This document shows, piece after piece, positions 7,707 through 57,057 of a stretch of 64,000 nucleotides of DNA; the stretch's first letter is position 1; the number at the start of each line of letters is the position of its first letter. The DNA comes from Anaerolineae bacterium (GTDB lineage: Bacteria; Chloroflexota; Anaerolineae; JAAYZQ01). A model generated the notes under the pieces. It ran no database searches, was not told the origin of the DNA, and worked only from the letters and a program-made list of their open reading frames with translations. Where the stretch lies: contig DAOTXL010000137.1 in the NCBI GenBank assembly GCA_034435455.1, forward strand, positions 54,687 through 118,686, given 5' to 3'. The position numbers and the translations under genes are program-made.

Positions 7707-10028
7707 CTACTCCTGGTTCCCCCGCTTCTGGATGCCGTCCAGATAGGCGACGTCGCCGGTGTTCAGGTCGGCGGCGTTGGCTTCGTCGGTGTCCAGGTGC
7801 AATTCCAGCTTGAATTTGGGTGAAACCCGCACCACCACGTCGCCAAAGATCAGCTCCCGTTCGTCGCCGGCCCGGACGCGTACCACATCGCCGTCCTGCA
7901 GGCCGAGGCGGCGGGCGTCGTCGGGCGTCATGTGGATATGCCGCTGGGCATAGATGACGCCGTTTTTGATCTCGATCTGGCCGGCCGGGCCTTCCAGGAT
8001 CAGCCCCGGCGTGCCGTCCAGATCGCCCGACAGGCGCACAGGGGCGTTGATGCCCAGCCGGTAGCCCTCTGTCCGGGAGATCTCCACCTGGGTCAGGGTG
8101 CGTGCCGGGCCGAGGACCCGGACGTTCTCTATGCTGCTGCGGGGGCCGATGAGCCGCACCGTCTCTTCGGCGGCGTACTGGCCCGGCTGCGACAGGGGGG
8201 AGCGGGGGGTGAGTTGATGGCCGGCGCCGAACAACCGCTCCACGTCGGCCTGGCTCAGGTGGACGTGGTGGGCCGACACGCCGATGGGGATCGGGATTTT
8301 GCTGGCCTGCATCTGGCGGGTGATGGCCTGGTAGCCCAGGATGCGGATCGTCTCGCGGGCGATCATGCGCGAGGCATCCGAGTGAATGACCAGCACCTTG
8401 ACTTTGGAATCGGGGTGGGAGATCTCTTCCACGCCCGTTACCCCGTCGCGCACCGTCCGGTTTCTGACGGCGTCTATCAGGATGCCCAGGCCCCACATCC
8501 CCTGACAGGCCAGGGCCCGCACCCCGGCCGCGTTCTCCCCGATGCCGCCGGTAAAGACCAGCACATCCAGGCCGCCCAGGACAGCATAGTAGGCGCCGAT
8601 ATACTTGCGCACCCGGTAGGCAAACACCTCGGCGGCCAGCAGGGCCCTGGAGTCGCCGGCGTTGGCCGCAGCGGCGATCTCACGGGTATCGCCCGACAGC
8701 CCCGATAGCCCCTTCAGGCCGCTCTCCCGGTTCAGCAGGTCGTCGATCTGATCGGCCGACAGCCCCTGACGCATCAGGTAGGTGACGATAGCCGGGTCCA
8801 GGTCGCCAGAGCGGGTGACCATGACCAGTCCCTCCAGGGGGGTGAGGCCCATGCTGGTATCCACCGAGCGGCCATGGTCGATGGCGCACACCGAAGCCCC
8901 TTCGCCCAGGTGACAGGTGATGATCTTGAGGCGGGAAAAGGGCCTTTTCAGGTAGGTGGCCGCCATGAGTGCCACATAGTGGTGCGACGGCCCGTGGAAC
9001 CCGTAGCGGCGGATGCCCTCCCTGGTGTACAGTTCCTCCGGCAGGGCGTAGCGATAGGCGTAGGGGGGCATGGTCTGGTGGAAAGCGGTATCGAACACCG
9101 CCACATGGGGCACGTCGGGCAGCAGTTCGCGCAGCCACTCGATGCCCTGGGCCTGCATCGGGTTGTGGAGGGGGGCCAGGGGGGCCAGGCGGCGGATGTC
9201 GGCCAGCACCTGGTCGTCAATCACCACGGGGTTGGAGTACTTGTCGCCGCCATGGACCACCCGGTGGCCAACGGCTGTGATCTCGCCCAGGTCCTTGATG
9301 ACGCCGATCCTGGGATCGGTCAGCCGGTCGAGGACGGCCTGGAGCGCCTGCCGATGGTCGGCCTGGCCTAGCTCGAAGCGGTGCTCGCCGCTGACGGTCC
9401 GGTGGGTCTGGAGGGTGCCCGGCCGGTCAATCCATTCGATCTGCCCTTCGACATGGTGGCTTTCGTCGCCGGTGTCGAAAAAGCGGTACTTGAGCGACCC
9501 GGTGCGCAGGTTGATAACCAATATCTTTTGGGGACCTTCGGGGCCGGGGGTCAGGTTCAGGCCGTAGGGATCGGCCTCTTTTTCGGCCTGCTGGCGGATA
9601 TGTTCTTCTCTGTCTCGCTCGATCAACGTGCCGCGCCGGGCGACGGTCCTGGCAAAACGTTGGAGGGCTGCCGGATCGGCCTGGACCCAGCGGTGAAACA
9701 GATGGCCCGGCACCAGCAGCACCTGGCAGGGGGTGGTGGCGATCACATCTACCGGGGAGGGGATGCCGGCCATCAGCGACAGGGTGCCCAGCTCGCCGCC
9801 GGCCCGGATCGTATCCAGCCGGCGCGGCTCTCCCTCTTGTTCGGCGGTGAAAAAGCCGGCCTCTCCTTCCAGGATCACCCCGAAAAAGGTGAACGGCTGG
9901 CCAAAGGGGACGATCACCTCGCCCGGCGCATAGGGTGCGATCTGGGCCTGTTCCTCAATGGCCTGGGCGATCTCGGGCGGCAGGCCTTCAAAGACCGGGT
10001 ACCGGTTCAGGATTTCTCGCGTAATCAT
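7707..10028 (-). CDS. Tri-domain fusion: cNMP-binding domain + acetate/propionate kinase + PduL-type phosphate acyltransferase
   Basis: The N-terminus has a CAP effector domain (FFGVILEG...ELGTLSLMAG). The middle is AckA (ILVINLRTGS, VVHGGDKYS, HGPSHHYV, ITCHLGEGASVCAIDHGRSVDTSMG, VFTGGIGENAA). The C-terminus aligns nearly residue-for-residue with Salmonella PduL (GVSAHHVHLS, SQPGQYAAEETVRLIGP, AQRHIHMTP, HLDTDEANAA). Confidence 0.85.
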   Translation of the reverse strand: MITREILNRYPVFEGLPPEIAQAIEEQAQIAPYAPGEVIVPFGQPFTFFGVILEGEAGFFTAEQEGEPRRLDTIRAGGELGTLSLMAGIPSPVDVIATTPCQVLLVPGHLFHRWVQADPAALQRFARTVARRGTLIERDREEHIRQQAEKEADPYGLNLTPGPEGPQKILVINLRTGSLKYRFFDTGDESHHVEGQIEWIDRPGTLQTHRTVSGEHRFELGQADHRQALQAVLDRLTDPRIGVIKDLGEITAVGHRVVHGGDKYSNPVVIDDQVLADIRRLAPLAPLHNPMQAQGIEWLRELLPDVPHVAVFDTAFHQTMPPYAYRYALPEELYTREGIRRYGFHGPSHHYVALMAATYLKRPFSRLKIITCHLGEGASVCAIDHGRSVDTSMGLTPLEGLVMVTRSGDLDPAIVTYLMRQGLSADQIDDLLNRESGLKGLSGLSGDTREIAAAANAGDSRALLAAEVFAYRVRKYIGAYYAVLGGLDVLVFTGGIGENAAGVRALACQGMWGLGILIDAVRNRTVRDGVTGVEEISHPDSKVKVLVIHSDASRMIARETIRILGYQAITRQMQASKIPIPIGVSAHHVHLSQADVERLFGAGHQLTPRSPLSQPGQYAAEETVRLIGPRSSIENVRVLGPARTLTQVEISRTEGYRLGINAPVRLSGDLDGTPGLILEGPAGQIEIKNGVIYAQRHIHMTPDDARRLGLQDGDVVRVRAGDERELIFGDVVVRVSPKFKLELHLDTDEANAADLNTGDVAYLDGIQKRGNQE

Positions 10029-10204: not shown

Positions 10205-10666
10205 TCAGAAGTCGCGGTAGATGACCTCTTCGTACCAGCCTTCTACCAGGTTTTTGTGCCGGAGTTCATCTTTGGCCATGGCCTCGAACAGGTCGCGGAT
10301 CTCGCCCTCGTTCTGCTCTGCCAGGTCGCGGTATAGCTCATAAGACTGCTGTTCTTTCCGCGAGGCAAAGATGCACACATCCTGGAAGGTCGAGTCGGGT
10401 CCCAGCGGCTGGACAACCAGATGATCGCCGATCTTGTAGTCCTGGATGGGGGCCTGTTGCAGGCGTCGGACGGCCCGGCGGACGCTGCCGGGGCTGGCCA
10501 GCATCCGTTCCAGGGCGGCTTTGTGCCCCAGTTCCTCCTGGGCGAGCTGGCGCAACGTCTCTTTGACATGCTCGGCCTTGACCAGGGCCACGGCGTGGGT
10601 GTACAGTTCATGAGATTCGATCTCACCCTGGATCGCTTCTTTCAGGATCTCTTCAATGGCAGACAT
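10205..10666 (-). CDS. Rubrerythrin/ferritin-like diiron protein
   Basis: Two E-x-x-H motifs (EELGHKAALERM, DELRHKNLVEG). AAGGAG RBS 6 nt before the ATG (MSAIEE...). The track ORF's TTG extension was rejected. Confidence 0.6.
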   Translation of the reverse strand: MSAIEEILKEAIQGEIESHELYTHAVALVKAEHVKETLRQLAQEELGHKAALERMLASPGSVRRAVRRLQQAPIQDYKIGDHLVVQPLGPDSTFQDVCIFASRKEQQSYELYRDLAEQNEGEIRDLFEAMAKDELRHKNLVEGWYEEVIYRDF

Positions 10667-10718
10667 CGTTCGCTCCTTGGTTTTGACTTTCAAAAGTGGC
10701 GGGTGCAGGTCGGCCGGA

Positions 10719-11096
10719 TCACTGCTTCAGCAGCCGGTTGACCTCTTGGACCATCCGCTGCAGTGGGACAGGCTTGGTCAAGAAGGTGTCCAGGTGGATG
10801 TACTCGTCGGTCGGGAACAGTTCGGCATAGTCGGTGTTGGCGATGGAGGTCACCATGATGATCGGAATCTCTTTATAGTCCGGGTGTTCGCTCAGGGCTT
10901 GAGAAACCGACAGGCCGTCCAGGACGGTGGCCATGATGATGTCCAGGATGATCAGGTCGGGGGGTTCCTGGTTGATCTTGCGCAGGGCTTCGTCGCCGCT
11001 GGCGGCGCTGTCAACCTGGTAGCCTGCCTGTTCGAGGGCGATGGAGGTGGCGGCGACAAAGTCGGGATCGTCATCTACCACGAGAATTTTAGCCAT
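10719..11096 (-). CDS. Stand-alone response-regulator receiver domain (CheY-like)
   Basis: MAKILVVDDDPDF...D...ILDIIM...K motifs; GGAGAAGGAAAATG RBS. It overlaps the upstream stop. Confidence 0.8.
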   Translation of the reverse strand: MAKILVVDDDPDFVAATSIALEQAGYQVDSAASGDEALRKINQEPPDLIILDIIMATVLDGLSVSQALSEHPDYKEIPIIMVTSIANTDYAELFPTDEYIHLDTFLTKPVPLQRMVQEVNRLLKQ

Positions 11097-12363
11097 TTTC
11101 CTTCTCCTTACATTGCCGGTAACGGATATGGTCTTGGTATTCATGGCGGAAATGCTGGAGGGAAGAGAGGACCGGGTTCACCACGGCGTCGCCCATGGGG
11201 CACAGGGTATGGCCGGCGATCCCCTGACACAACGATTCCAGACGGTCCAGGTCGTCGGGCTGGCCCTGTCCCTGCACGATGCGGGTCAACGTCTCCAGCA
11301 GGCGCAGGGAACCCATGCGGCAGGGGGTGCACTGGCCACACGACTCGTGGGCGAAAAAGTCGATCAGGCGGCGGGCCACTTCGACCATGCAGGTCCCCTC
11401 TTCCATGACCACGATCGCCCCGGTGCCCAACATGGTGCCGGCCTGGGCCAGCGATTCAAAGTCCATCGGGATGTCAATCTGGTCGGGCAGCAACATCGGC
11501 GTGGAGGCTCCGCCGGGGATCACCGCCTTGAGGGGGCGGTCGCCGCGCATCCCGCCGGCATACTGCTCGAGGAGGGTGCGCAGGGGCGTGCCCAGCGGCA
11601 GTTCATAGTTTCCCGGTCGCCGCACATGCCCGCTGATGCAAAAGAGTTTGGGCCCGGGGCTCTTTTCTGTCCCCATCGTTCGGTACCACTCGGCGCCGTG
11701 CAGGACGATGTGGGGCACGTTGGCCAGCGTTTCGACGTTGTGGACCAGGGTGGGCCGGTTCCAGAAGCCTCTCTGGGTCGGGTAAGGCGGCTTGAGGCGC
11801 GGCTCGCCCCGTTTCCCTTCCAGGGAGTTGATGAGGGCCGTCTCTTCGCCGCAAATGTAGGCCCCTGCCCCCCGGTGCACCGACAGGTCCAGGTCAAAGC
11901 CGCTGCCCAGGATATTTTTGCCCAGGAAGCCGTAGGCATAGGCGTCGTCAATGGCTTTGATCCAGCGTTTGACCCCCAGGAAAAACTCGCCGCGGATGTA
12001 GACAAAGGCGCGATGGGCGCCCACTGCATAGGCAGCGATGATCGTCCCCTCGATGATCGAGTGGGGATCGTGCTCCACCAGCAGGCGGTCTTTGAAGGTC
12101 CCCGGTTCCCCTTCATCGGTGTTGACGCAGAGGTATTTGGCGACCGGTTCTTTGGGCATAAACCCCCACTTGACGCCCGCCGGGAAGCCGGCCCCCCCCC
12201 GTCCCCGCAGGCCGGAAGCTTTGACCAGGGCGATCAGCTCTTCAGGCAACATCTGCAGGGCCTTGCGCAGGGCGGTGTAGCCGCCGCGCTCCAGGTAGAC
12301 GGCGATCCGTTCCGAGTTGGGGATGCCCACGTTGCGCGTCAGGACCGGCGCAAAGGTGCCCAT
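11089..12363 (-). CDS. NuoF/HoxF/FdsB-type NAD(H)-binding FMN + 4Fe-4S flavoprotein
   Basis: GRGGAGFPAGVKW, ICGEETALINSLEG and ESCGQCTPCR motifs. Confidence 0.85.
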   Translation of the reverse strand: MGTFAPVLTRNVGIPNSERIAVYLERGGYTALRKALQMLPEELIALVKASGLRGRGGAGFPAGVKWGFMPKEPVAKYLCVNTDEGEPGTFKDRLLVEHDPHSIIEGTIIAAYAVGAHRAFVYIRGEFFLGVKRWIKAIDDAYAYGFLGKNILGSGFDLDLSVHRGAGAYICGEETALINSLEGKRGEPRLKPPYPTQRGFWNRPTLVHNVETLANVPHIVLHGAEWYRTMGTEKSPGPKLFCISGHVRRPGNYELPLGTPLRTLLEQYAGGMRGDRPLKAVIPGGASTPMLLPDQIDIPMDFESLAQAGTMLGTGAIVVMEEGTCMVEVARRLIDFFAHESCGQCTPCRMGSLRLLETLTRIVQGQGQPDDLDRLESLCQGIAGHTLCPMGDAVVNPVLSSLQHFRHEYQDHIRYRQCKEKENG

Positions 12364-12818
12364 GGGGCTGCCCTCTCGATCAGCTCATCAATCAACAGGT
12401 CCACTTTGGCCGTGGTGAGGTTTTCGTACAGCTCGTCGTTCACCCGCATGGCCGGGGCCGTGCCGCACGAGGCCAGGCATTGCACCGTTTCCAGGGTAAA
12501 CAGGCCATCGGCCGTCGTTTCTCCGACCTGGATTTCCAGTTTGCGCTGCAAATAGTCCACCAGCCGCTCGGCCCCGTCGGCCAGGTAGCAGCTCAACCCC
12601 CGGCAGACCTGGAGCACGTACCGGCCCGCCGGCCGGGTGCGGAACAGGGTGTAGAAGCTGGCCGTGCTGTACACCCCGGCCTGGGGCAGGCCCAGCCGTT
12701 CGGCCACCCGTTCCAGCGCCTCCGGGGAAAGATACCGTTCTTGCTCCTGGGCGATGTAGAGGGCGGTGAGGAGGCGCGCCCGTCTGGCAGGGTCAGGGAC
12801 CTGGGGGCCTGTGGCCAT
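12339..12818 (-). CDS. NuoE/FdsG-type thioredoxin-like [2Fe-2S] subunit
   Basis: CRGLSCYLADG...CLASCGTAPAM cysteine pattern. Confidence 0.85.
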   Translation of the reverse strand: MATGPQVPDPARRARLLTALYIAQEQERYLSPEALERVAERLGLPQAGVYSTASFYTLFRTRPAGRYVLQVCRGLSCYLADGAERLVDYLQRKLEIQVGETTADGLFTLETVQCLASCGTAPAMRVNDELYENLTTAKVDLLIDELIERAAPWAPLRRS

Positions 12819-12860: not shown

Positions 12861-13355
12861 TTATCCTCCCCAGGGCATCTGGGCGTACTCTTCAAAGGCC
12901 CGGTCGTGGAGCGTCTTGAACAGCTTTTCGTGCTGCCGCTCCCAGCCGGCCAGCATCTGGAGCGATTTTCGGGCGGCGGCGTCTTGCACCCGCTCGGCGG
13001 CCAGGTCGTAAAACTCGGCAAAGTCGCGTTCGATGAGATAGGCCATGCGCAGCACCGCCAGGTCGGGCACCATGGCTTCGATAACCGTTTGATCGAGCAG
13101 TTCGCTCACGGCCCGATCGGAGAAAAAGCCCGACCGTTCTAGCTCCAGGCCGGCCTCCGGGCCGGTGTCGCCGGCGGCATCCAGGGCGCTGAGGAGGGTC
13201 TGGATAAACTGGATATGTTTTTCCTCCTCCTGGGCCAACTGCTCGAACACGCCGATAACGGCCGCGTGGCCGAAGCGACCGGCATTGGCCCGGAAAAAGT
13301 CCCGCCCTTCCTCTTCACGTTTCAGGGCGTATTGGTATATTTTTTCCAGGTCCAT
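12861..13355 (-). CDS. Rubrerythrin/ferritin-like diiron protein (second copy in the operon)
   Basis: E-x-x-H pairs (EEEKHIQF, WERQHEKL). CAGGAGGAAACGATG RBS in front of MDLEKIY... Confidence 0.6.
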   Translation of the reverse strand: MDLEKIYQYALKREEEGRDFFRANAGRFGHAAVIGVFEQLAQEEEKHIQFIQTLLSALDAAGDTGPEAGLELERSGFFSDRAVSELLDQTVIEAMVPDLAVLRMAYLIERDFAEFYDLAAERVQDAAARKSLQMLAGWERQHEKLFKTLHDRAFEEYAQMPWGG

Positions 13356-13390
13356 CGTTTCCTCCTGGCAGGGCGAAATGACATCTTGTC

Positions 13391-16090
13391 CTACAACGCT
13401 TCGACCTTGATGGCACACACCTTGAACTGCGGGATCTTGCCGACCGGGTCCAATGCGGCGATGGTCAGCTTGTTGGCTGCTGCTTCGGCAAAGTGCCAGG
13501 CCATGAACACAACGCCCGGATCGGTCCTGGGGCTGACCAGGGCCTCTGCTTCGACGGAGCCGCGCCGCGACGACAGGCGCACCCGTTGGCCGTCGGCGAT
13601 GCCCAGCCGGGCGGCGTCATCGGGGTTGATCTCGACCAGCGGTGCCGGGTAGATGGCCGTCAGCCCGGCCGACCGGCGGGTCATGGAGGTGGTGTGGTAG
13701 TGGTATAGCACCCGGCCGGTGGTCAGGATGAACGGATAGGTCTCGTCCGGCTCCTCGGCGGGCGGTTGCCAGTCCACGGCGCTGAACAGGCCCAGCCCGC
13801 GGCTGAACTTGCCTACGTGCAGGATCGGGGTGCCGGGGTGGTCGGGGTTCGGGCAGGGCCATTGCAGGCCCTGGTCACCGATGCGGTCGTAGGTGATGCC
13901 GGCGTAGCTGGGGGTCAGGCGGTTGATCTCGTCCATGATCTCCCGGGGCGAGGGGTAGGTCAGGCCGTCGTAGCCCATCCGGCGGGCGATCTGGCCGATG
14001 ATCCACCAATCGGGCCGGGCCTCGCCGGGCGATGGCACTGCCGGTCGGACAAACTGCACCCGTCGTTCTGAATTGGTAAAGGTGCCCAGCTTTTCCGCCC
14101 AGCTCTGGGTGGGCAGCACCACGTCGGCCAGGGCCGCTGTCTCGGTGAGGAAAATATCCTGGACCACCAGGAACTCCAGGCTGCGCAGGCACTGTTCGGT
14201 GTGGTTGGCGTCCGGATCAGATAGCAGGGGGTTTTCGCCCATGATGTACAGGGCGCGGATTTCGCCGGTTTCGGCCCGGGATAACATCTCGGTCACCGTC
14301 AGGCCCACTTGATTGGAGAGGGGCACTCCCCAGGCCTCTTCAAACTTTTTCCGACTGGCCTCCAGGGTCACGGCCTGGTAGCCGGTGTAGACGTTGGGCA
14401 GGCCGCCCACATCGCATGCGCCCTGGACGTTGTTCTGACCGCGCAGGGGGTTGACTCCGCCGCCCGGCAGGCCGATATTCCCCAGGAGCATCTGCAAGTT
14501 GGCGCAGCTCAGCACGTTCCGGTGGCCGGTGTTGTGCTGGGTGATGCCCATGGCGTACAGCATCGCGCCCGGTTTGTGGGCCGCCAGCAGGTGGGCCGCT
14601 TCGACGATCTGTTCGGCCGGCACACCGCAGATCGCCGCCACCCGCTCCGGCGGGTATTCCAGGATTTTGGCTTTGAACTCCGCAAAGCCCTCGGTCCGTT
14701 CGGCGACGAACTGTTTGTCGTACAGATCCTCGGTGATCAGGACGTGCATGATGCCGTTGAGCAGGGCGATGTCGGTGCCCGGTTTCTGGCGGATGTGGAG
14801 GGTGGCGTATTCGGCGATGGGGATGGTGCGCGGGTCACACAGGATGATCCGGGCGCCCCGCTGCTTCACCGCCTGGCGGAGCCGCATGCCCAACACCGGG
14901 TGGTTTTCGGTGGTGTTGGAGCCGATGATCAGGTAGATCTGGGCCTGTAGGGCGATATCGTCGAAGGAGTTGGTCATCGCCCCGGAGCCGAAAGCTGTGA
15001 CCAGACCGGTCACGGTCACGCTGTGTCAAAGGCGAGCACAGTGGTCTACATTGTTCGTTCCCATCACAGCGCGGGCGAACTTTTGCATGACATAATTCTC
15101 TTCGTTGGTGCATTTGGCCGAGGCCAGGGCGGCGAACGCCGAGGGCCCATACCGGTCCTTGATCTCCCGCAGCCGGGTGGCAACCAGGTCGAGGGCCTCG
15201 TCCCAGGTGGCCTCTTCCAGCTCGCCCCCCTTTTCTCGACGGATCAAAGGCCGGGTCAGCCGGTCGGGGTGGTGGACGAAATCCCAGCCGAAACGCCCCT
15301 TGACGCAGAGCCAGCCGTGGTTGGCCGGGGCGTCCCACTTGGAAGCCACGCCCAGGATGCGCCCGTCTTTGACCTTGAGGTAGAATTGGCAGCCCACGCC
15401 GCAGTAGGGGCAGGTGGTCGCCACCTGGGTCATCTCCCAGGCCCGGCCCTGACCCTGACCCAGGAGGGGGTGCAGCGCCGCCGTTGGGCACAGTTCGACG
15501 CACATGCCGCAGAATTCGCATGGGCTGTCCTGGAGCGTGCCGTCGAAAGCGGTGCCGATCTTGCTTTCCCAGCCGCGCCAGATGACGCCGATGGCCTCCA
15601 CGCCGTTGATCTCCTGGCAGGCGCGGACGCAACGGCGGCAAAGGACGCACTTGTTATAGTCGCGGATGAAGAACGGGTTAGAGGTGTCCAGGGGGTAGTG
15701 GTGCTGGGCGCCGGGGAAGCGGCTCTGTTTGATGCCGTATTGATAGGCCAGGTCTTGTAGCTCGCAGCTCCCCGTCCGCTCGCAGGTCATGCAATCCAGG
15801 GGATGGTCCGAGAGCAGCAGTTCCAGGACAAACCGCCGGGCTTCCTCCACCTGGGGCGAGTGGGTCTTGACCTCCAGGCCATGGGTTGCCGGAAAGGTGC
15901 AGGCCGGTTGCAGCGTCCGCTGCTGCGCCACTTCTACCAGACACAGGCGGCAGGCACCGATGGGGGCCAGGGCGGGGTGATGGCACAGGGTGGGGATTTT
16001 GATGCCCGCGGCGGTGGCTACCTCCAGGATCGTCTGCCCCTCTCGGGTCTGGATTTTCTGTCCGTTGATGGTAAGGGTCACCGTTGTCAT
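13391..16090 (-). CDS. fdhA: Formate dehydrogenase catalytic (alpha) subunit, selenocysteine-containing: N-terminal 2Fe-2S/4Fe-4S (NuoG-like) domains plus molybdopterin domain
   Basis: ORFs 15026..16090 and 13391..15019 are in the same frame and separated only by TGA. Read-through gives ...[33 protein letters not shown], which aligns to E. coli FdhF ...CARV-U-HGPSVAGLHQSVGNGAMSN. Confidence 0.8.
14990..15025 (-). ncRNA. SECIS-like hairpin directly 3' of the in-frame UGA
   Basis: mRNA reads UGA CAC AGC GUGACC-GUGACC-GGUCU-GGUCAC: a 6-bp stem with a GGUCU apical loop about 15 nt after the UGA. E. coli fdhF has GGUCUG at the same place. Confidence 0.5.
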
Positions 16091-16140: not shown

Positions 16141-19100
16141 TTATACCAATGAGCCAACCTGGCGCGGCGGAACCGGCTCGAAGGCCAACTCCATCTCTTG
16201 CAGCCATTCCAGGTCGCAGCGCAGGCAGCGCTTGCATTCCTCCTGGGCTGCCCGCTCGTCCAGCCCCAGCTCTACCTCGCGAAAGTTGCCCCGCCGCTCC
16301 TCCACCGGAAGTTCGGGCATCTCCGGCGGGTGGGCCTGGGCATAGTCGTCCAGGTTGAAGGGCTGGTCCACCACTTCGTAGCCGGGTATGGTGATGATCG
16401 GCTCCACCCTGCCGGTTTGCAGATAATAGTCCACCGTCCGGGCCACAGCGTTGCCCTGGGCCACAGCTTCGACCACCGAAGCCGGCCCGCTGACGGCGTC
16501 GCCGGCAGCAAAGACGCCGGGGCGGGAAGTGGCCAGGGCGTCGTTCACGAGCAGGGTGTTGTCCCGCCGCACCTCGACCTGCCCTGCCAGCCCATCCGGG
16601 TCGGGTGTCTGGCCGATGGCCGGGATCAGCACATCCAGGTCGAGGACGAACTCGGAACCGGAGAGCGGCACCGGGCGGCGGCGGCCACTTCGGTCGAATT
16701 CGCCCAGGGTGTGGCGCAGGCATTCCACGCCGGTGACGTGGCCGTCGCCCAACACCCGGGTAGGGTTGGTCAAAAAGTGAAAGACCGTGCCTTCCTCTTC
16801 GGCAGCCTCGATCTCCTCTTTGTAGGCCGGCATCTCGTCGCGGCGCCGCCGGTAGAGGATGTGCACCTGGCTGGCGCCCAGCCGCCAGGCCGTGCGCGCG
16901 GCGTCAATGGCCACGTTGCCGCCGCCGACCACGCCGACCCGTTTGCCCTTCAGGTCGGGGGCATGGCCCAGGGCCACGTCGCGCAAAAAGTCCACACCGT
17001 GGATGACCCCCTCCTTTTCCTCCCCTTCAATCCGCAACCGGCCGCTATAGTGGGCGCCGATGGCCAGCACCACGGCGCTGTATCCCTGCTCCAGGAGGGA
17101 GTCCAGGGTAAAGTCGCGGCCCAGGGCTTGATTGCAGCGGATCTCGACGCCGGCGCGGCGGATGTTGTCAATTTCGACCTGGAGGATCTCCTTGGGCAGG
17201 CGGTAATCGGGGATGCCCACGGCCATCATCCCGCCGGGGATGGGGAGCTTTTCGAATACGGTGACCCTGTACCCCTGTTGGGCCAGGCGCAACGCTGCGG
17301 TCAGGCCGGCCGGACCGGAGCCCACCACCGCCACCTTCTCGGTCTTGGGCTTGCCCAGGAGGGGAGGCGTCCAGGGGTTCTTGAGCTCATGGTCGGCCAT
17401 AAAACGTTTCACGGCGCGGATGGCGATCGGTTCGTCAATGTCGCCGCGCCGGCAGCGGGACTGGCAGAAGGCGGGGCATACCCGACCGCAGACCAGGGGG
17501 AAGGGGTTGGTCCGGCGGTGGATCTCCAGCCCCTCGGCGTAGCGGCCCTGGGCGATGAGGGCCACGTAGCTGGGCACATCCACATCGGCCGGGCAGGCGT
17601 TGGTGCAGCGGGCCCGGACCAGCTCTTTGCAGACGCCGGCCGGGCAGCGCTTTTCCACGATGTGGGCTCGGAACTCGTCCTCAAAGTAGCGCAGCGCCGC
17701 GTTGATCGGCCCCGGTGTCAGTTGCCCCAGGGCGCACAGGCTGCCGGTTTCCATCCCAGCCGCGATCTGGCGGATGGCATCCAGGTCTTCTAGCCGACCC
17801 TGCCCCTTGGTGATGCGGGCCAGCACCTCCAGCAGCCGCTTGCCGCCCATGCGGCAGGGGATACATTTGCCACAGCTCTCGGCGGTGGCAAAGGTCAGGA
17901 AGAACCTGGCGAACTCGACCATGCAGGTGTCTTCGTCCACCACGATCATGCCGCCGGAGCCCATCACCGCGCCCACTTCTTTGAGGGAGTCGAAATCCAC
18001 CCGCACATTCAGGTGTTCGGCGGGGATGCAGCCACCCAGCGGGCCGCCGGTCTGCACGGCCTTGAACCTTTTGCCGTTGGGCACGCCACCGCCGATGTCA
18101 AAGATAATCTCCCCCAGGGTGATGCCCATGGGAACCTCAACCAGGCCGGTGTTGTTCACCTTGCCGGTGAGGGCAAAGATGGCCGTGCCGGGGGAACGGG
18201 GCGAGCCGATGTTGGCAAACCATTCTGCCCCGCGCAGGATGATCTGCGGCACGTTGCAGTAGCTCTTGACGTTGTTCAGGTTGGTGGGTTTGTTCCACAA
18301 CCCCCGGACGGCGGGGAAGGGAGGGCGGGGGCGGGGTTCGCCGCGGCGGCCTTCGATGGAGGCTAGCAGCGCCGTCTCTTCGCCGCAGACAAAAGCGCCC
18401 GCGCCCTCTTTGACATAAAGGCGGAAGGAGAAGTTGGACCCCAGGATATTGTCCCCCAACAGCCCATATTCCTCGGCCTGGGCGATGGCGATCTTGAGGC
18501 GTTTGATGGCCAGCGGATACTCGGCCCGGCAATAGATGTACCCTTCCCGGGCCCCCACCGCGTAGCCACAGATGGTCATCCCTTCGATCAGGCTGTGGGG
18601 GTCACCTTCGATAAGGGAACGGTCCATGAAGGCCCCCGGGTCCCCCTCATCGGCGTTGCACACCACATATTTGACGTCGCCGGGCGCCTTGGCGGTCAGC
18701 TCCCATTTGATGCCGGTGGCAAAACCGGCGCCACCTCGCCCCCGCAGCCTGGAGGCTTTGACCTCTTCGATCACTTCGGCCGGTGTCATGGAGGACAGGA
18801 CCTTGACGAGGGCCTGATAACCATCCCGGGCGATATATTCCTCGATATTCTCCGGGTCGATCATGCCGCAGTTGCGCAGGGTGATGCGCAGTTGTTTGCT
18901 GTAGAAGGGGATTTCGCCGTAGAACGGCACGGCCTGGTGGGCCGAAGGCTCCTTGTAGGTCAGCCGTTCTACCACACGCCCTTTGAGCAGCGTCTCTTCG
19001 ACCAGAAACGGGACATCTTCTGGTTGGACCTGACAGTAAAAGATGCCGTCGGGGTAGATGATCATCACCGGCCCCATGGCACAGAACCCCCGGCAGCCGG

Positions 19101-19242
19101 TGTGCACCACCTGGACCTCACCTGCCAGCCCCTGGCGTTCGACCTCCTGCACCAGGGCCTGGTAGACGCCGGTCGATCCAGAGGCTTCGCAGCCGGTTCC
19201 GCCGCAGACCAGCACACTGGCCCGATAGATTGCTTCGGTCAT
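16141..19242 (-). CDS. Multidomain flavoprotein: NuoE-like [2Fe-2S] + NuoF-like (FMN/NAD, 4Fe-4S) + 2x[4Fe-4S] + GltD/NfnB-like FAD/NAD(P) oxidoreductase domain
   Basis: 1033 aa. VLVCGGTGCEASGS...CRGFCAMGP, then GRGGAGFATGIKW and ESCGKCIPCR, then two CxxCxxCxxxCP ferredoxin motifs, then VAVVGSGPAGLTAA...VGVVGGGNVAIDAAR...VFAAGD. Confidence 0.8.
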   Translation of the reverse strand: MTEAIYRASVLVCGGTGCEASGSTGVYQALVQEVERQGLAGEVQVVHTGCRGFCAMGPVMIIYPDGIFYCQVQPEDVPFLVEETLLKGRVVERLTYKEPSAHQAVPFYGEIPFYSKQLRITLRNCGMIDPENIEEYIARDGYQALVKVLSSMTPAEVIEEVKASRLRGRGGAGFATGIKWELTAKAPGDVKYVVCNADEGDPGAFMDRSLIEGDPHSLIEGMTICGYAVGAREGYIYCRAEYPLAIKRLKIAIAQAEEYGLLGDNILGSNFSFRLYVKEGAGAFVCGEETALLASIEGRRGEPRPRPPFPAVRGLWNKPTNLNNVKSYCNVPQIILRGAEWFANIGSPRSPGTAIFALTGKVNNTGLVEVPMGITLGEIIFDIGGGVPNGKRFKAVQTGGPLGGCIPAEHLNVRVDFDSLKEVGAVMGSGGMIVVDEDTCMVEFARFFLTFATAESCGKCIPCRMGGKRLLEVLARITKGQGRLEDLDAIRQIAAGMETGSLCALGQLTPGPINAALRYFEDEFRAHIVEKRCPAGVCKELVRARCTNACPADVDVPSYVALIAQGRYAEGLEIHRRTNPFPLVCGRVCPAFCQSRCRRGDIDEPIAIRAVKRFMADHELKNPWTPPLLGKPKTEKVAVVGSGPAGLTAALRLAQQGYRVTVFEKLPIPGGMMAVGIPDYRLPKEILQVEIDNIRRAGVEIRCNQALGRDFTLDSLLEQGYSAVVLAIGAHYSGRLRIEGEEKEGVIHGVDFLRDVALGHAPDLKGKRVGVVGGGNVAIDAARTAWRLGASQVHILYRRRRDEMPAYKEEIEAAEEEGTVFHFLTNPTRVLGDGHVTGVECLRHTLGEFDRSGRRRPVPLSGSEFVLDLDVLIPAIGQTPDPDGLAGQVEVRRDNTLLVNDALATSRPGVFAAGDAVSGPASVVEAVAQGNAVARTVDYYLQTGRVEPIITIPGYEVVDQPFNLDDYAQAHPPEMPELPVEERRGNFREVELGLDERAAQEECKRCLRCDLEWLQEMELAFEPVPPRQVGSLV

Positions 19243-21743: not shown

Positions 21744-22211
21744 TCACAGCGTTTCAGCCGACCGTTCACACGCTTCGCGGGTATGATGGAGCCGGGAGGC
21801 GATGACCTCGGCCAACTGTTTCATCACCACGAACCCGATGTGGGGCTCGCGGTCAAAGAGGGCGTTGAGGTCATCGGCCTTGAGGGTGAGCAGGGTCACC
21901 GGTTCCAGAGCGGTAGCCGAAGCGGTGAAGCGCTGCTGTTTGACTAACGAGGACCAGCCAAAGATGCGTCCCGGCTTGACCTCCTCGATGGTGGTCTCGC
22001 CGCCGGGCTCCAGGGTGGAGCGCAGGCGGATGTGGACCTGGACCCGGCCGGTCTGCAGGATGAAGAGCCGGTCGGCCAGTTCTTGCTCGGCGCAGATCAG
22101 GTCGCCGGCCTGGTACGTTTCTTCGCGGACGAGGGGGGCGATTTGGGCCAGGGCATCGTCGCTCAATTCATAGAATAGTTCGCAGTCACGCAGGGCTTCT
22201 GGCGAAATCAC
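21744..22211 (-). CDS. Stand-alone cyclic-nucleotide-binding domain protein
   Basis: CAP-effector-domain pattern (FILQTGRVQV...GRIFGWSSLV...ASATAL); GTG start with a GGGAGGAAAAGAAC RBS. Confidence 0.65.
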   Translation of the reverse strand: MISPEALRDCELFYELSDDALAQIAPLVREETYQAGDLICAEQELADRLFILQTGRVQVHIRLRSTLEPGGETTIEEVKPGRIFGWSSLVKQQRFTASATALEPVTLLTLKADDLNALFDREPHIGFVVMKQLAEVIASRLHHTREACERSAETL

Positions 22212-22243
22212 GTTCTTTTCCTCCCGACGGTGGGGCAGGCTTC

Positions 22244-22789
22244 TCAGGGCAAAGTCAGTTCTGCCTCCCCTTCAGCGATATACTCGCCCAGCCATAGCCA
22301 GACCTGGGGATGGGAGAGGGGGACCTCGCCCAGTTCGGCCTGCAGGTCGGCTGTGTCGAACTCGAACGTTTTGCCGTTGACCTGGTGGCGGTAACGCAGG
22401 CGCACCTCCTGTTTGGAGAGCAGGAAGGCCAGCAGGGTATCGGCAATGTTGCCCAGCGGGGCTCGATCCAGATGGCTGTGGCGAAAGCTGGCTGTGACCG
22501 TGGTGCCCTGGCCACAGGCCGATTGCAGGGTCAGGCCGCCCTCGCACAGTTCTGCCGCCTGGGCCAGAAGCGGCAGCCCCAGGCCTACATGGCGGGTGGT
22601 CCGGGTGGTGAAGAACGGGTCTACGGCCTGCCGGGCCGTCTCGGCGTCCATGCCCCGGCCGTTGTCGCGCACGGTGATGGTCAGCCGGTCGGCCGCCAGG
22701 TCTTCGACAATGTTCAGATCCACCTGGGTGGCTCCGGCTTCCAGGGCGTTCTGCAGCAGGTCCAGGATGTGCAGGGACAGCTCGCGCAT
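22244..22789 (-). CDS. GHKL-type ATPase (histidine-kinase-like ATP-binding domain only)
   Basis: NALEAG...DNGRGMD...GLGLPL (N, G1, G2 boxes); AAGAGG RBS before MRELSL... Confidence 0.6.
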   Translation of the reverse strand: MRELSLHILDLLQNALEAGATQVDLNIVEDLAADRLTITVRDNGRGMDAETARQAVDPFFTTRTTRHVGLGLPLLAQAAELCEGGLTLQSACGQGTTVTASFRHSHLDRAPLGNIADTLLAFLLSKQEVRLRYRHQVNGKTFEFDTADLQAELGEVPLSHPQVWLWLGEYIAEGEAELTLP

Positions 22790-22830
22790 CCTCTTGTCCT
22801 CGCCGGGTAGGACCACCCTCTGGGGTCCGG

Positions 22831-23298
22831 TTACTCCAGGCTGTCTACAAGGGCGGCCATGCTCTCCGGGACCAGGTGGCCCACCACCTTGTCGTCAATC
22901 ATGGCTACCGGGGCCAGGCCGCAGGAGCCCAGGCAGTAGACCACTTCGTAGGTCAGCCGATAGTCGGGGGTTGTCTCGCCCGCCTGGATCCCCAGGCGGT
23001 TTTGGATCGTATCAATAATGCGCGCGGCGCCTCGCACGTGGCAGGCGGTGCCATCGCATTGGCGGATGACGTGTCGCCCGCGGCGGGTGAGGTAGAACTG
23101 GGAGTAGAAGGTCACCACGCCATAGATCTGGCTCAGCGGGACCTTCATTTCCTGGGCGATCGTTTTGAGCACCGGCTGGGGCAGCCAGCCATAGATCTCC
23201 TGGGCTTTTTGCAGGACCGGGATCACCGCTCCGCGCTGTGTTTTATACCTTTCCAACACCTCGTACAGGGGAGCCAGGTTTAGAGCCTCTTCTGCCAT
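22831..23298 (-). CDS. NuoE/HoxE-like thioredoxin-like [2Fe-2S] protein
   Basis: CDGTACHVRGA...CLGSCGLAPV pattern. Confidence 0.8.
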   Translation of the reverse strand: MAEEALNLAPLYEVLERYKTQRGAVIPVLQKAQEIYGWLPQPVLKTIAQEMKVPLSQIYGVVTFYSQFYLTRRGRHVIRQCDGTACHVRGAARIIDTIQNRLGIQAGETTPDYRLTYEVVYCLGSCGLAPVAMIDDKVVGHLVPESMAALVDSLE

Positions 23299-23332
23299 CT
23301 ATTTCCTCCGTCGAAAGGGTTACCAGGTATGC

Positions 23333-24073
23333 CTACTGAATTCTGACCCACCGGCCGGCCTGACCTGCCAGCGCCAGGGCCAGTTCGGCCACGGTAGGCT
23401 GCTGCACTTTGAACATTGTCCGCGCCGTCATCTCTTCCAGGCGGTGGGCATCGCCGCTGACGATTATGCCATAACCTGCCGTCTGAGGCAAACGCCGGGC
23501 CACTTCTAGCGGGTCGGCTTTGCGCGACAGCTCCAGGCCGGCGATCGGCAGGTGGGGGGGGATGAACCCCAGGTTGACGATCAGGCTGTTGGTGGGGCGA
23601 TCGAGGTGGGCCGGCAGCACGATCCCCCCCAGCGTCTGTGTGCCGGTCACCACCTCCTCCACCGACAGGGAGGCTGCGACCGACAACAGCCGTTTTTCGG
23701 TGTAGAGGTACTGGCCGGTTGCGTCTACGACGAACTGGGCGCCAAAGAACTCTTCGTTGTTCTCCCGGTCTGGCAGGGCGGCCCATACCTGTTTCTGCCA
23801 GGCCAGGACCTGTTCCACCGTGTCGAACAGGCAGATCAGGTGCACCTCCTCCCGGCTCTGGACCTCCATGCCGGGCAGGACCGTCAGGCCGGTGCCGGCT
23901 GCTGCTTCGACCACGGCGGCGGTGTTGCCGGCCGCATTGTGGTCGGTGATGGCCAGCAGTTCCAGCCCCAGTTCCCTTGCCCGCCTGACGATGAGGGGGG
24001 GGATCATTTCCACCTCAGCGCAGGGTGACAGGACGGTATGCACATGGAGGTCGGCCAGCAGGTAGTGCCACAT
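23333..24073 (-). CDS. PHP-domain (polymerase/histidinol-phosphatase-like) metal-dependent phosphoesterase
   Basis: LADLHVHTVLSPCA...ITDHN...GMEV motifs. Confidence 0.7.
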   Translation of the reverse strand: MWHYLLADLHVHTVLSPCAEVEMIPPLIVRRARELGLELLAITDHNAAGNTAAVVEAAAGTGLTVLPGMEVQSREEVHLICLFDTVEQVLAWQKQVWAALPDRENNEEFFGAQFVVDATGQYLYTEKRLLSVAASLSVEEVVTGTQTLGGIVLPAHLDRPTNSLIVNLGFIPPHLPIAGLELSRKADPLEVARRLPQTAGYGIIVSGDAHRLEEMTARTMFKVQQPTVAELALALAGQAGRWVRIQ

Positions 24074-24113
24074 GGTTGCTTATCGGGTGGGAGGTGGTTC
24101 GCGGGGGGCTGGC

Positions 24114-24452
24114 CTATGCTCCGGCGATGCCCAGGGCGCTCAACTGGCCGGTCACGGTAAAGGTCGTTTGCGGTGAGCTCAACAGCGTTACCTCATTCTC
24201 CCGGGCCCGGTCCACCGTTTCCCGATCCGGCATCACCCCTTCGGTGATGATCACGGCAGCCAGGTCCAGCAGCGAGGCTACAGCTACGACGTTGGGGTGG
24301 GCCTGGAGGGTGACCCACACGTTGCCCGACCGGGCCCGGGCCATCACACAGCTCAGCAGGTCTGAAGCATAGCCGCCGGTCACCGGGCGGTTCATCTGGC
24401 CGGGGGTGATCACCTGCAGCCCCAACCTGCTCACCAACTCTTGGACAAGCAT
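24114..24452 (-). CDS. DRTGG-domain protein
   Basis: QVITPG...VMARAR...SLLDLAAVIITEG pattern, typical of the DRTGG family. Confidence 0.6.
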   Translation of the reverse strand: MLVQELVSRLGLQVITPGQMNRPVTGGYASDLLSCVMARARSGNVWVTLQAHPNVVAVASLLDLAAVIITEGVMPDRETVDRARENEVTLLSSPQTTFTVTGQLSALGIAGA

Positions 24453-24463
24453 CCTGGCCTCCT

Positions 24464-25393
24464 TTATCTTTCGGGCGGTGGAATGCGGAACCAGGTCTCC
24501 AGGCGGGTGCCGGCGCCCGGCTCCGATTCCAGCTTCATCTCATCGGCACAATGCTGGATGTTCAAGAGCCCCATGCCGGCACCAAAGCCCATTTCGCGGA
24601 TCCATTCGGGGGCGGTGGAAAAACCGGGACGCATGGCCTGTTCTACGTCGGCGATGCCGGGGCCGGTGTCGGTAGCTACGATGTGCACCTGGTCTGGCTG
24701 GATTTCGACCACCAATTCGCCGCCCTTTTCAGCGTGGATGATCAGGTTCATCTCGGCCTCGTAGGCGGCCACCCCCACGCGCCGGGCGATGACGGGGCTC
24801 CCCCCCAGGCGTTCGATGGCCCGCTTGATTCGGCTGGAGGCAGCTCCGCCGTGGGTGAAATCCAGGGGCCGCACCTGGTAGCGCAGGATCAGGCTGGTGC
24901 GGTCGGACATAATGTCCTCAAAGATGTGGCTGGCCCGATAGCGATGGATCTCTTCCTCGTGATAATCTACTTCCAATCGCCGCAGCAGTCCCCGGATGAT
25001 CTCGCCCCGGGTCAGGATGCCCACCAACTGCCCAGAGCGGTCCAATACCGGGAAGCGGCCAAAGTCAAAGCGGATCATGCGGTTGATGGCCTGGACCAGC
25101 GGCTCATCGGCGTAGAGCACTTCGACCCTGGTGGTCATTTTGTCTCTGACCAGGGCATCCATTTCCCCTTTTTCCAGGGCCTTGATCAGGTCTTCCAGGC
25201 TGATGATCCCCACCAGCCGGGTTTCTTCGACGACCGGTGTGCCGGAAATGCGCTTGAGGCGCAATAGCTCCTTGAACTCGCGCATGGAGGTATGGGGGGT
25301 GACGGTGACCACCTCGGCTTTCATGACATCTTGGATTTTGAGGGTGTAGATCAGCTCTTGGAGCCGTGAGCCTTCGGCGGGGCGGACGGTCAT
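24464..25393 (-). CDS. CBS-pair + GHKL (HATPase_c) protein
   Basis: Two CBS-like repeats (VMKAEVVTV..., GRFPVLDRSGQLVGILTRGEI) then an anti-sigma-kinase-like ATPase (LIIHAEKGGELVV..DTGPGI..GFGAGMGL). Confidence 0.7.
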   Translation of the reverse strand: MTVRPAEGSRLQELIYTLKIQDVMKAEVVTVTPHTSMREFKELLRLKRISGTPVVEETRLVGIISLEDLIKALEKGEMDALVRDKMTTRVEVLYADEPLVQAINRMIRFDFGRFPVLDRSGQLVGILTRGEIIRGLLRRLEVDYHEEEIHRYRASHIFEDIMSDRTSLILRYQVRPLDFTHGGAASSRIKRAIERLGGSPVIARRVGVAAYEAEMNLIIHAEKGGELVVEIQPDQVHIVATDTGPGIADVEQAMRPGFSTAPEWIREMGFGAGMGLLNIQHCADEMKLESEPGAGTRLETWFRIPPPER

Positions 25394-56457: not shown

Positions 56458-57057
56458 ATGGCAAAAAAGGTTTCTGTACGCACGCCCCGCGACCGCTGGG
56501 CCGATTGGGCTGTCCTCGGTGTGGTCGTCGTGGCCCTGCTCCTGGGTTGGGGGGTGATGGCCATAGCTCAGGGACAGCGAGGCCTCTATGCCGATGACCG
56601 GACCGGGCTGACGGTCTGGTATCCGGAGGGCTGGCTACTCAAGGCCGGTGAGAACCTGGCTTTCCAGGCGGTGGACCCGGCCTCGGGCGAGTTCAAGACG
56701 ACCTACCAGGTGCGCCTGGTGCCGATTGACGCGACGGCGGCAGTCACCCCCACCCTGGCCGCAGTGTTGAACAGGCTCTCGCTGGCCCGCGCCCAGGAGG
56801 GGACCGCCTACCGGTTGTTCGACATCGCCGAGGGAGCAAAAATCGGCGGCCAGCCGACGATGGAGGCCACCTGCGTTTACGTGATAGAGAGCAGTAACCT
56901 GTTCGTCCAGCGCCTGCCGGTGATAGTCCAGGGGCTGGACGTGGCTGTGGCCCACGGCGACCGGGCCTACATCTTTAGCCTGTTGGCCTCGCAGGAGAAT
57001 TTTGAGAAGGCGGAGCCGGCCTTCCGCCGGTTCGTCAAATCTGCTGAGATCAGGTGA
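56458..57057 (+). CDS. Membrane-anchored hypothetical protein
   Basis: Single N-terminal TM helix then a 170-aa soluble domain; no family recognised. Confidence 0.45.
   Translation: MAKKVSVRTPRDRWADWAVLGVVVVALLLGWGVMAIAQGQRGLYADDRTGLTVWYPEGWLLKAGENLAFQAVDPASGEFKTTYQVRLVPIDATAAVTPTLAAVLNRLSLARAQEGTAYRLFDIAEGAKIGGQPTMEATCVYVIESSNLFVQRLPVIVQGLDVAVAHGDRAYIFSLLASQENFEKAEPAFRRFVKSAEIR

Follow-up and report, generated by a model that had tools for sequence, protein, structure and literature searches.

Does the in-frame TGA in a formate dehydrogenase (FDH) gene of an Anaerolineae bacterium break the gene, or is it recoded as selenocysteine (Sec)? No bacterial selenoprotein family is more widespread than FdhA, which made up 103 of the 285 bacterial selenoproteins counted in a 2006 census (PMC1794560). 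We analyzed the locus within a 64-kb stretch of DNA (the window), and conclude that positions 13391–16090 (minus strand) very probably hold an ordinary Sec-containing FDH gene in which the TGA is recoded and does not interrupt the reading frame.

The gene, fdhA (FDH alpha subunit), runs on the minus strand from an ATG at 16090 to a TAG stop at 13391–13393 and comprises 899 codons with one in-frame UGA (codon 355, Sec355). A sequence-only reading of this DNA had described two open reading frames (ORFs) in one frame parted by TGA, and ORF positions and translation bear this out: 15026–16090 (354 aa) and 13391–15019 share a frame, the sole stop between them is the TGA at 15026–15028, and the two codons between this TGA and the GTG at which a mechanical ORF list restarts (CAC and AGC) are both open. 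The translation across the TGA is ...[29 protein letters not shown]..., an exact match to the read-through peptide quoted in that reading. Read through, FdhA is a complete NuoG-type FDH alpha subunit that scores 862.4 bits against TIGR01591 (cutoff 666.25) in a single stretch spanning the TGA (residues 225–896); its best PDB matches are 7vw6/7e5z (W-FDH1 alpha) and 6tg9 (FdsA), with E of about 1e-240. The N-terminal NuoG-like Fe-S domains (15269–16090, minus strand) all lie upstream of the UGA and comprise 2Fe-2S, His-ligated 4Fe-4S, 2x4Fe-4S and Mo-enzyme 4Fe-4S domains (Pfam Fer2_4, residues 2–78; NADH-G_4Fe-4S_3, 85–124; Fer4_Nqo3, 143–206; Molybdop_Fe4S4, 220–274). The UGA falls within the Mo/W-bis-pyranopterin catalytic domain (13394–15262, minus strand), where positions 1–81 of the Pfam Molybdopterin profile match before the TGA and positions 98–352 after it, followed by Molydop_binding.

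The position of the TGA coincides with the catalytic residue. FdhA is 45% identical to Escherichia coli FdhF over 660 aa, with the TGA opposite Sec140, in agreement with the site proposed from the sequence alone; the TGA also aligns with the X (Sec) of PDB 9t1s_L and the catalytic Cys of 7vw6/6tg9. The concatenated protein, whose alignment that reading had suggested, gives one continuous profile match over the TGA, which lies at the catalytic Sec/Cys position. The codon that follows the UGA (15026–15028, minus strand) is the catalytic His codon CAC: His356 corresponds to E. coli His141, and Arg550 to Arg333 of E. coli FdhH (NPLRGQ/NPVRGQ alignment). FdhA thus carries the marks of a Sec-type FDH, namely an alpha-family score above the curated threshold, UGA-His plus Arg, and orthologues with either UGA or Cys. 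The E. coli peptide and DNA quoted for comparison were also correct, the 60-nt fdhF string being 100% identical to fdhF in three listed genomes and at least 99% identical in 5412 records.

Downstream of the UGA lies a candidate SECIS core hairpin (14997–15013, minus strand; +16 to +32 from the U of the UGA), in which GUGACC pairs with GGUCAC as a 6-bp stem around the loop GGUCU (15003–15007). The hairpin begins 12 nt after the UGA and the loop 18 nt after it, which makes the earlier estimate of about 15 nt roughly right. Its GGUCUG apical sequence, said to be shared with the E. coli fdhF SECIS, occupies +22 to +27 from the UGA, an offset identical in E. coli fdhF. The bSECIS criteria listed in PMC13188914 specify a loop of 3–9 nt, an upper stem of 4–16 bp, a G in the first two loop positions, 16–37 nt between UGA and loop, and an energy of −7.5 kcal/mol or below. 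In a simplified implementation the hairpin falls within all of these bounds (5-nt loop, 6-bp stem, G22 and G23 in the loop, 18-nt spacing, −8.0 kcal/mol on its own and −9.5 within its surroundings). Rule-compliant hairpins under these simplified rules nonetheless follow 7.3% of the 1573 UGA triplets in the GC-rich window, so that the hairpin alone is weak evidence. It is also short, which was counted against the Sec reading.

The hairpin was likewise picked up by Rfam SECIS_3 (RF01989; 14973–15031, minus strand), which covered the UGA and an extended stem-loop over the full model (34.5 bits, model 1–59/59). When the whole window was compared with all 4227 Rfam families, E was 5.5e-4 for this match, the sole one below 0.01. 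At gathering thresholds no Rfam family matched in the window, SECIS_3 surfacing only with E-value thresholds; the region therefore resembles SECIS_3 and is not a curated-threshold member (34.5 bits vs a gathering score of 63). Like the model, it has the UGA and, at the apex, the cNGUCUg core, whereas the lower stem of the model is unformed in the window (mismatched pairs). Single-sequence folding of a 63-nt stretch gave a competing hairpin as the minimum free energy structure (z = −0.75, not significant), which was counted against the Sec reading. Such folding was dropped as evidence either way. The competing structure uses a window-specific GUGACC duplication that, among relatives, is conserved in L001 only.

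Comparative data decide the case. The site codon was located with a tblastn-based finder in 80 related loci from many phyla, and was TGA in 55 and Cys in 25 (TGT 14, TGC 11). Across the hairpin region, 79 loci aligned without gaps (54 TGA, 25 Cys), and GGTCTG stood in register (+22 to +27) in 51 of the 54 TGA loci vs 2 of the 25 Cys loci (Fisher p = 1.4e-14, relatedness uncorrected); because many of the TGA loci are closely related, there were fewer independent events than these counts suggest. The GGT within this motif is a rare Gly codon here (7.6%). Stem pairing was retained in 97.3% of cells across 49 distinct TGA-type sequences, compared with 66% in Cys loci. Three of the six pairs had changed on both sides (GC to or from CG or AU, and AU to or from GC), a covariation that is not purely synonymous because it coincides with Thr/Val to Ala/Ala exchanges in either direction. 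Its score was reached by none of 500 shuffles, slid registers paired in 17–53%, and RNAalifold yielded the same helix. Third-codon-position entropy at +21, +24 and +27 was 0.13 bits in TGA loci vs 1.8–2.0 bits in Cys loci; this low entropy was confined to the hairpin and to TGA loci, and the flanks varied to about the same extent whether the codon was TGA or Cys. SECIS_3 was recovered in seven of eight TGA relatives tested and in neither of two Cys relatives, with TGA orthologues scoring 36–47 bits. The comparative evidence is far beyond chance.

The sequence-only reading had named two observations that would speak against it: Cys in close relatives together with a genome lacking selABCD, or an unconserved hairpin. 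Instead, among the 31 closest relatives the codon is TGA in every case but that of L032, which has TGC and keeps the hairpin stem, and the TGA relatives retain the hairpin with compensatory changes. The 80-locus set offers a clean natural control for RNA-level constraint on a bacterial SECIS and for its decay after Sec-to-Cys replacement.

We are accordingly confident, short of certainty, that fdhA is one gene encoding a cytoplasmic NuoG-type Mo/W FDH alpha subunit whose metal-ligating residue is Sec, and that the hairpin is a bacterial SECIS. During translation, the UGA would be decoded as Sec and not as a stop, with the GGUCU-loop hairpin recruiting SelB-GTP-Sec-tRNA(Sec) to the ribosome when the UGA arrives in the A site; selA, selB, selC and selD would be encoded elsewhere in the genome. 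Electrons from formate would then travel through the five Fe-S clusters of the 899-aa FdhA to its neighbors, the HydB/NuoF-GltD flavoprotein and the NuoE-like subunits, with NAD(P)+ as the probable final acceptor.

A different account of the same UGA is that it is read through without Sec, either by a near-cognate tRNA inserting Cys or Trp or through reassignment, leaving the hairpin as a relic or a read-through stimulator. Searches for the decoding machinery bear on this. With ARAGORN, neither the 64-kb window nor 60 related loci yielded a tRNA-Sec, tblastn queries with the SelA, SelB and SelD proteins of E. coli had no match at E ≤ 1e-3 in the window and 81 loci, and a Pfam scan of about 50 window ORFs returned no Sel families. 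That the window and 1.33 Mb of related loci yielded neither sel genes nor tRNA-Sec was counted against the Sec reading and favors read-through of another kind. Termination is weak at a UGA whose next base is C, and the Cys-type relative L032 retains what would be a fossil hairpin, so such relics persist. Reassignment, however, is ruled out: TGA is the commonest normal stop in the window, ending 17 of the 35 Pfam-supported genes. The GGUCU loop is strongly constrained in TGA loci alone and decayed in Cys loci, which argues for a working SelB-type interaction, and SelB has been reported in Anaerolineales (PMC4959059). We consider read-through without Sec very unlikely.

Still harder to credit is a pseudogene or an assembly or sequencing error, in which the TGA would be a recent nonsense change and the gene dead or mis-assembled. 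An in-frame stop is the default pseudogene signature, and gene callers treat fdhA in this way, but TGA occupies the same codon in 55 of the 80 loci, across independent assemblies and phyla, and sits exactly on the catalytic residue. Moreover, identical independent contigs (NCBI and Logan) carry the same TGA, both halves of the protein are conserved (89% amino acid identity to L001, residues 1–898), and the GC3 values flanking the TGA are 0.82 and 0.86. The comparative data effectively refute this explanation. A true split gene, its 354-aa Fe-S piece and a pterin-binding piece from GTG 15019 joined post-translationally, has in its favor the GTG two codons past the TGA and the general existence of split Mo-enzymes, but we give it almost no credence, as it would delete the metal-ligating residue and part that site from the catalytic His, cut one Pfam profile mid-domain, allow no ribosome-binding region inside conserved coding sequence, and leave the RNA-level hairpin conservation specific to TGA loci unexplained.

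Three more same-frame TGA junctions in the window have coding-like composition on both sides. Those at 51454 (plus strand) and 30645 (minus strand) were rejected as split selenoproteins, each joining adjacent genes of different Pfam families, as was that at 57055 (plus strand), where two genes lie 18 nt apart and Pfam matched nothing in the upstream ORF. Because none of the three interrupts a domain profile as the FDH TGA does, no second selenoprotein gene is seen in the window.

Several known systems are close to fdhA. E. coli FdhF shares the in-coding-sequence hairpin immediately 3' of the UGA but is without the roughly 220-aa NuoG-like N-terminal Fe-S extension, and its partners form the hydrogenase-3 complex, whereas those of the window FdhA are of NuoF/NuoE type. 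The stem register also differs: in the E. coli fdhF SECIS, A-U closes a 4-nt GGUC loop and U17 is bulged, whereas the window hairpin has a 5-nt loop on six contiguous pairs (i+j = 48). Over the full length, the best structural homologues (alignment 3–896) are FdsABG-type and Methylobacterium FDH1-type enzymes (6tg9, 7vw6, 7e5z), which likewise combine a NuoG-like N-terminus with a pterin domain and have adjacent NuoF- and NuoE-like genes. They differ in having Cys at the active site, where the window gene encodes UGA/Sec, and in their NuoF-like partner, which in the window is of HydB type and fused to a GltD/NfnB-like module. Further precedents are FdhA from Anaerolineales single-cell genomes (An-B22, An-B16, An-K11), which belong to the same bacterial class and some of which are reported to carry SelB genes, and Moorella thermoacetica FdhAB, where a cytoplasmic NAD(P)-dependent FdhA is annotated with active-site Sec (PMC4959059; PMC5736913). 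In the available portions of these sources, the reports rest on annotation, without SECIS analysis or a Sec/Cys comparison. Sec-FDHs in Anaerolineales are therefore already reported, and fdhA is a further example.

The biology adds little, and the value of this gene for annotation is larger. The expectation that gene callers split Sec-containing fdhA proved right: in NCBI assembly GCA_964559445.1, where identical genes lie on contigs CAZLIS010000137.1 and CAZLIS010000374.1, fdhA is annotated in two pieces. Among the best 120 database homologues, 114 are C-terminal fragments of 472–565 aa, and the others (five full-length and one 700-aa partial) all have Cys; an exact database look-up of the 354-aa N-terminal fragment found none on record. 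Because gene callers stop at the UGA, 114 of these 120 closest homologues are stored truncated in the public protein catalogue, and reconstructions of formate metabolism and the Wood-Ljungdahl pathway from Anaerolineae metagenome-assembled genomes may therefore score the enzyme as broken or missing.

Upstream of fdhA, a 1033-aa fusion protein (16141–19242, minus strand) joins a HydB/NuoF-type flavoprotein (2Fe-2S, FMN, 4Fe-4S) to a GltD/NfnB-like FAD/NADP(H) module, and its synteny with fdhA is conserved in relatives. Residues 4–543 score 844 bits to the bifurcating HydB 7t2r_B, with the N-terminal 2Fe-2S Cys residues present, and residues 543–1011 score 405 bits to 9bov_A. The CxxCxxCxxxC ferredoxin-type motif expected for a HydB C-terminal domain was not found in this protein, in which the GltD-like domain follows after residue ~530. 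The flavoprotein is likely the electron-accepting subunit of the FDH. Within the Bfu/Stn family (Sporomusa StnABC, NfnABC, Fdh-Bfu), its N-half matches HydB/StnB-type subunits (656–844 bits) and its C-half the GltD-like part of StnC/NfnA (353–405 bits). The linear domain order HydB-GltD-NuoG-pterin is that of Sporomusa stnB-stnC (PMC7483475), but GltD is joined there to the NuoG-like protein and in the window to the HydB-like protein. Judged by sequence, the window pterin domain appears catalytically complete and Sec-bearing; for StnC, in contrast, FDH activity was not seen (PMC7483475). Fdh-Bfu enzymes of type 1, in which BfuA bears pterin, have been predicted (PMC9304861). We tentatively raise the possibility, which we think rather unlikely, that the Sec-FDH serves as catalytic head in a Stn/Bfu-like complex not characterised before, with the HydB-type flavoprotein fused to the NfnB/GltD-like NADP(H)/FAD module and accompanied by the NuoE-like, second NuoF and rubrerythrin-like proteins of the cluster. 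In such a complex, formate oxidation or CO2 reduction could be linked both to NAD(H) and to NADP(H), or, through bifurcation, to ferredoxin. The complex would then be catalytically live, where its counterpart, the Sporomusa Stn transhydrogenase, showed no FDH activity in its FDH-like domain.

Downstream of fdhA, all on the minus strand, lie a NuoE/HydC-like 2Fe-2S subunit (12339–12818; PF01257, 158 bits; TIGR01958 above cutoff) and a second NuoF-like FMN/NADH subunit (11089–12363; Complex1_51K, NADH_4Fe-4S, SLBB). A rubrerythrin-like gene identified by Pfam (12861–13418, minus strand) sits between fdhA and nuoE; it probably starts later than these coordinates imply, and in the identical contig it is annotated with 164 aa. 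Overall, the gene cluster holds two NuoE-like subunits, the second NuoF, and rubrerythrin-like proteins.

The gene at 13391..16090 on the minus strand (fdhA) very probably encodes a formate dehydrogenase (FDH) alpha subunit with selenocysteine (Sec) at a recoded UGA. Its two listed ORFs, an N-terminal piece of 354 aa terminating in TGA (15026..16090, minus strand) and a C-terminal piece (13391..15019, minus strand), share one frame. Translation of the whole interval gave 899 sense codons and one internal stop, codon 355, a TGA at 15026-15028 (minus strand). The read-through peptide quoted in the sequence-only reading matched the translation around this TGA ([28 protein letters not shown]), and its E. 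coli fdhF sequence was accurate: a 60-nt string from the fdhF TGA had perfect fdhF matches in three listed genomes and matches of 99% or above in 5412 E. coli records. BLASTP (45% identity over 660 residues) placed the TGA at the equivalent of E. coli FdhF Sec140, as proposed, and paired the catalytic-site residues His141 and Arg333 with His356 and Arg550.

Pfam domains before the TGA comprise 2Fe-2S, NuoG-type 4Fe-4S, dicluster ferredoxin, and Mo-enzyme 4Fe-4S; the "Molybdopterin" profile spans it (positions 1-81 before, 98-352 after) and is followed by Molydop_binding. With Cys put at the TGA site for scoring, the 13391-16090 product matched TIGR01591 (Fdh-alpha) in a single stretch (862 bits, cutoff 666). 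Full-length alignments with the alpha subunits of NAD-linked FDHs (7vw6/7e5z and 6tg9; E ~1e-240) put their catalytic Cys opposite the TGA, and an X occupies this position in the Sec-containing F420-dependent FDH 9t1s_L. A gene scan of public genomes assigned the window to Anaerolineae (Chloroflexota), the nearest loci being Anaerolineae MAGs (74-89% aa identity).

Downstream of the UGA, the candidate SECIS GUGACC-GGUCU-GGUCAC (14997-15013, minus strand) occupies +16..+32, counted from the U of UGA. It conforms to the bacterial SECIS criteria of PMC13188914, with a 5-nt loop, a 6-bp stem, G at loop positions 1 and 2, a UGA-to-loop spacing of 18 nt, and energies of -8.0 kcal/mol isolated and -9.5 in context. 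GGUCUG lies at the identical offset (+22..+27) in E. coli fdhF. MFE folding of these 63 nt favoured a different hairpin and gave a fold no better than shuffles (z = -0.75). A tandem GUGACC-GUGACC at 15008-15019 (minus strand), from the codons Val-Thr-Val-Thr, provides an upstream copy that permits this competing hairpin; the duplication is limited to the window and one related locus (L001), other relatives carrying GTCACC, GCCACC, and similar. In this 64%-GC window, a simplified implementation of the criteria found a compliant hairpin after 7.3% of 1573 UGA triplets. By itself, the hairpin is thus weak evidence for a SECIS.

Comparison across 80 related loci, of which 55 carry TGA and 25 carry TGT or TGC (Cys) at the site, argues strongly that the hairpin is a SECIS. 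The TGA group covers Anaerolineae, Dehalococcoidia, Bacillota, Desulfobacterales, Syntrophaceae, Geobacter, and Actinomycetota, although many of its loci are close relatives. Among the 79 loci aligned gap-free, GGTCTG at +22..+27 was present in 51/54 TGA loci vs 2/25 Cys loci (Fisher p = 1.4e-14, uncorrected for relatedness), and the six stem pairs were formed in 97% of cells vs 66%; the hairpin is therefore conserved among Sec-FDH relatives, where its absence would have counted against the original proposal. GGT is a rare Gly codon in this genome (7.6%). Third-codon-position entropy at +21, +24, and +27 was 0.13 bits in TGA loci vs 1.8-2.0 bits in Cys loci, whereas outside the hairpin third-position variability was alike in both. 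Of the six stem pairs, three showed two-sided changes across 49 distinct TGA-type sequences, GC<->CG/AU (18-30), AU<->GC (19-29, coinciding with Thr/Val <-> Ala/Ala changes and so not purely silent), and CG<->AU (21-27). None of 500 shuffles reached the covariation score of the actual alignment, pairing fell to 17-53% when the 3' arm was moved by 1-3 columns, and RNAalifold independently recovered the same helix.

The Chloroflexota locus L032 (4704-4751, plus strand, 70% identity) has TGC at the site and loop GGCCT, yet keeps the full GTGACC...GGTCAC stem, a fossil SECIS consistent with recent Sec-to-Cys replacement. Largely intact stems also occur in the Cys loci L051 (TGC, 6/6 pairs) and L037 (TGT, 5/6 pairs). 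One Geobacteraceae contig (L076) carries two FDH alpha paralogues ~9 kb apart (at 1271 and 10464), one with TGA and a GGTCTGG hairpin, the other with TGC and no hairpin. The residue after His tracks the Sec/Cys state, mostly U-H-S vs C-H-A.

In an E-value search of the entire window against all 4227 Rfam families, SECIS_3 (RF01989) was the sole match with E < 0.01 (14973-15031, minus strand, full length, 34.5 bits, E = 5.5e-4). It also matched the orthologous site in 7/8 TGA loci tested (36-47 bits) and 0/2 Cys loci tested. Since all these scores fall below the gathering score of 63, we do not call the hairpin a curated RF01989 member. At a contig end downstream of a Pelotomaculum Sec-FDH locus (L047:7471-7547, plus strand), the Moco/Tuco riboswitch family (RF01055) gave a sub-threshold match, truncated on its 3' side (29 bits; gathering score 36).

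Canonical bacterial Sec insertion is the mechanism with the best support. In this inferred scheme, SelB carrying Sec-tRNA(Sec) would bind the hairpin with the GGUCU loop, so that Sec is inserted at the UGA; as residue 355 it would become a ligand of the Mo or W in the bis-pyranopterin cofactor, beside His356 and Arg550. Read-through of the UGA without selenium would accord with our searches of the window and of 1.33 Mb of related loci, Pfam scans included, which turned up no selA, selB, selD, or tRNA-Sec; it is nevertheless unlikely, because the loop is kept only where UGA is present and PMC4959059 reports SelB from Anaerolineales genomes. Synthesis of two polypeptides from a truly split gene would take away the metal ligand, cut one domain profile in two, and leave the RNA-level hairpin conservation unexplained. 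A nonsense mutation or sequencing error is excluded by recurrence of the same TGA in assemblies made independently, among them identical NCBI and Logan contigs, and by strong conservation of both halves of the gene, and reassignment of UGA in this lineage by TGA being the commonest true stop (17/35 Pfam-supported genes).

Pipeline gene calls bore out the prediction that the gene would be annotated as two truncated genes or a pseudogene. On NCBI contig CAZLIS010000374.1 (GCA_964559445.1), the identical gene was called in two parts, an N-terminal one and another of 528 aa, and among the best 120 homologues of the C-terminal part in a 5.8-billion-protein catalogue, 114 were fragments of 472-565 aa. 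The other six, five full length (895-900 aa) and one a 700-aa partial, all carry Cys there. No bacterial selenoprotein family is more widely distributed than FdhA, which also accounts for most known Sec-to-Cys replacements (PMC1794560; PMC13188914); annotations of Sec-containing FDHs exist for Anaerolineales single-cell genomes (PMC4959059; PMC5736913). The gene is thus correctly read and of a well-known kind, and the finding's value lies in annotation more than in new biology. A second selenoprotein gene in the window was considered and rejected, as no other TGA junction there breaks a protein domain as the FDH TGA does.

The operon suggests a destination for the FDH electrons. Directly upstream of fdhA, a 1033-aa fusion (16141-19242, minus strand) joins a HydB/NuoF-type flavoprotein (HydB/StnB-type; 844 bits to 7t2r_B, a bifurcating NiFe-HydB) to an FAD/NADP(H) module that resembles the GltD/NfnB-like part of StnC/NfnA (405 bits to 9bov_A; 353 for StnC, 8oh5_C) and bears a GxGxxA NADP-type motif. 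The fusion is kept upstream of fdhA in ~25 related loci and the NuoF(-GltD)-FdhA arrangement in most relatives; downstream lie a rubrerythrin-like, a NuoE-like, and a second NuoF-like gene. The Sporomusa Stn transhydrogenase StnB-StnC shares the domain order of the fusion plus the next gene, NuoG-like/Sec-FDH (PMC7483475), but in the window the two are fused at a different point and the FDH domain is catalytically complete. This arrangement is also reminiscent of the predicted Type 1 Fdh-Bfu enzymes (PMC9304861), although electron bifurcation by the complex is putative. Two rubrerythrin-like genes (12861-13418 and 10205-10693, minus strand), interleaved with the FDH, NuoE, and NuoF genes and kept beside fdhA in many Anaerolineae relatives, recall the predicted "Rub-Bfu" class (PMC9304861).

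At the end of the cluster, a 773-aa ORF (7707-10028, minus strand; 91% conserved in L001) has a cyclic-nucleotide-binding domain together with a complete acetate kinase (462 bits) and a phosphate acyltransferase of the PduL type (PTAC, 256 bits), making it a fused and possibly cNMP-regulated Pta-Ack module. Upstream, regulatory-looking genes at 21744-25393 (minus strand) encode a cNMP-binding protein (21744-22211), a stand-alone HATPase_c protein (22244-22816), another NuoE-like 2Fe-2S protein (22831-23298), a PHP-domain protein (23333-24073), and a CBS+HATPase protein (24464-25393), all on the minus strand, and resemble accessory genes often found in HydABC-type operons. The gene at 26614-28269 (plus strand) encodes a reductive activator of corrinoid proteins of the RACo type (Fer2, RACo middle, and RACo C-terminal ASKHA domains), a hint that the organism may use corrinoid-dependent methyl transfer or Wood-Ljungdahl chemistry.
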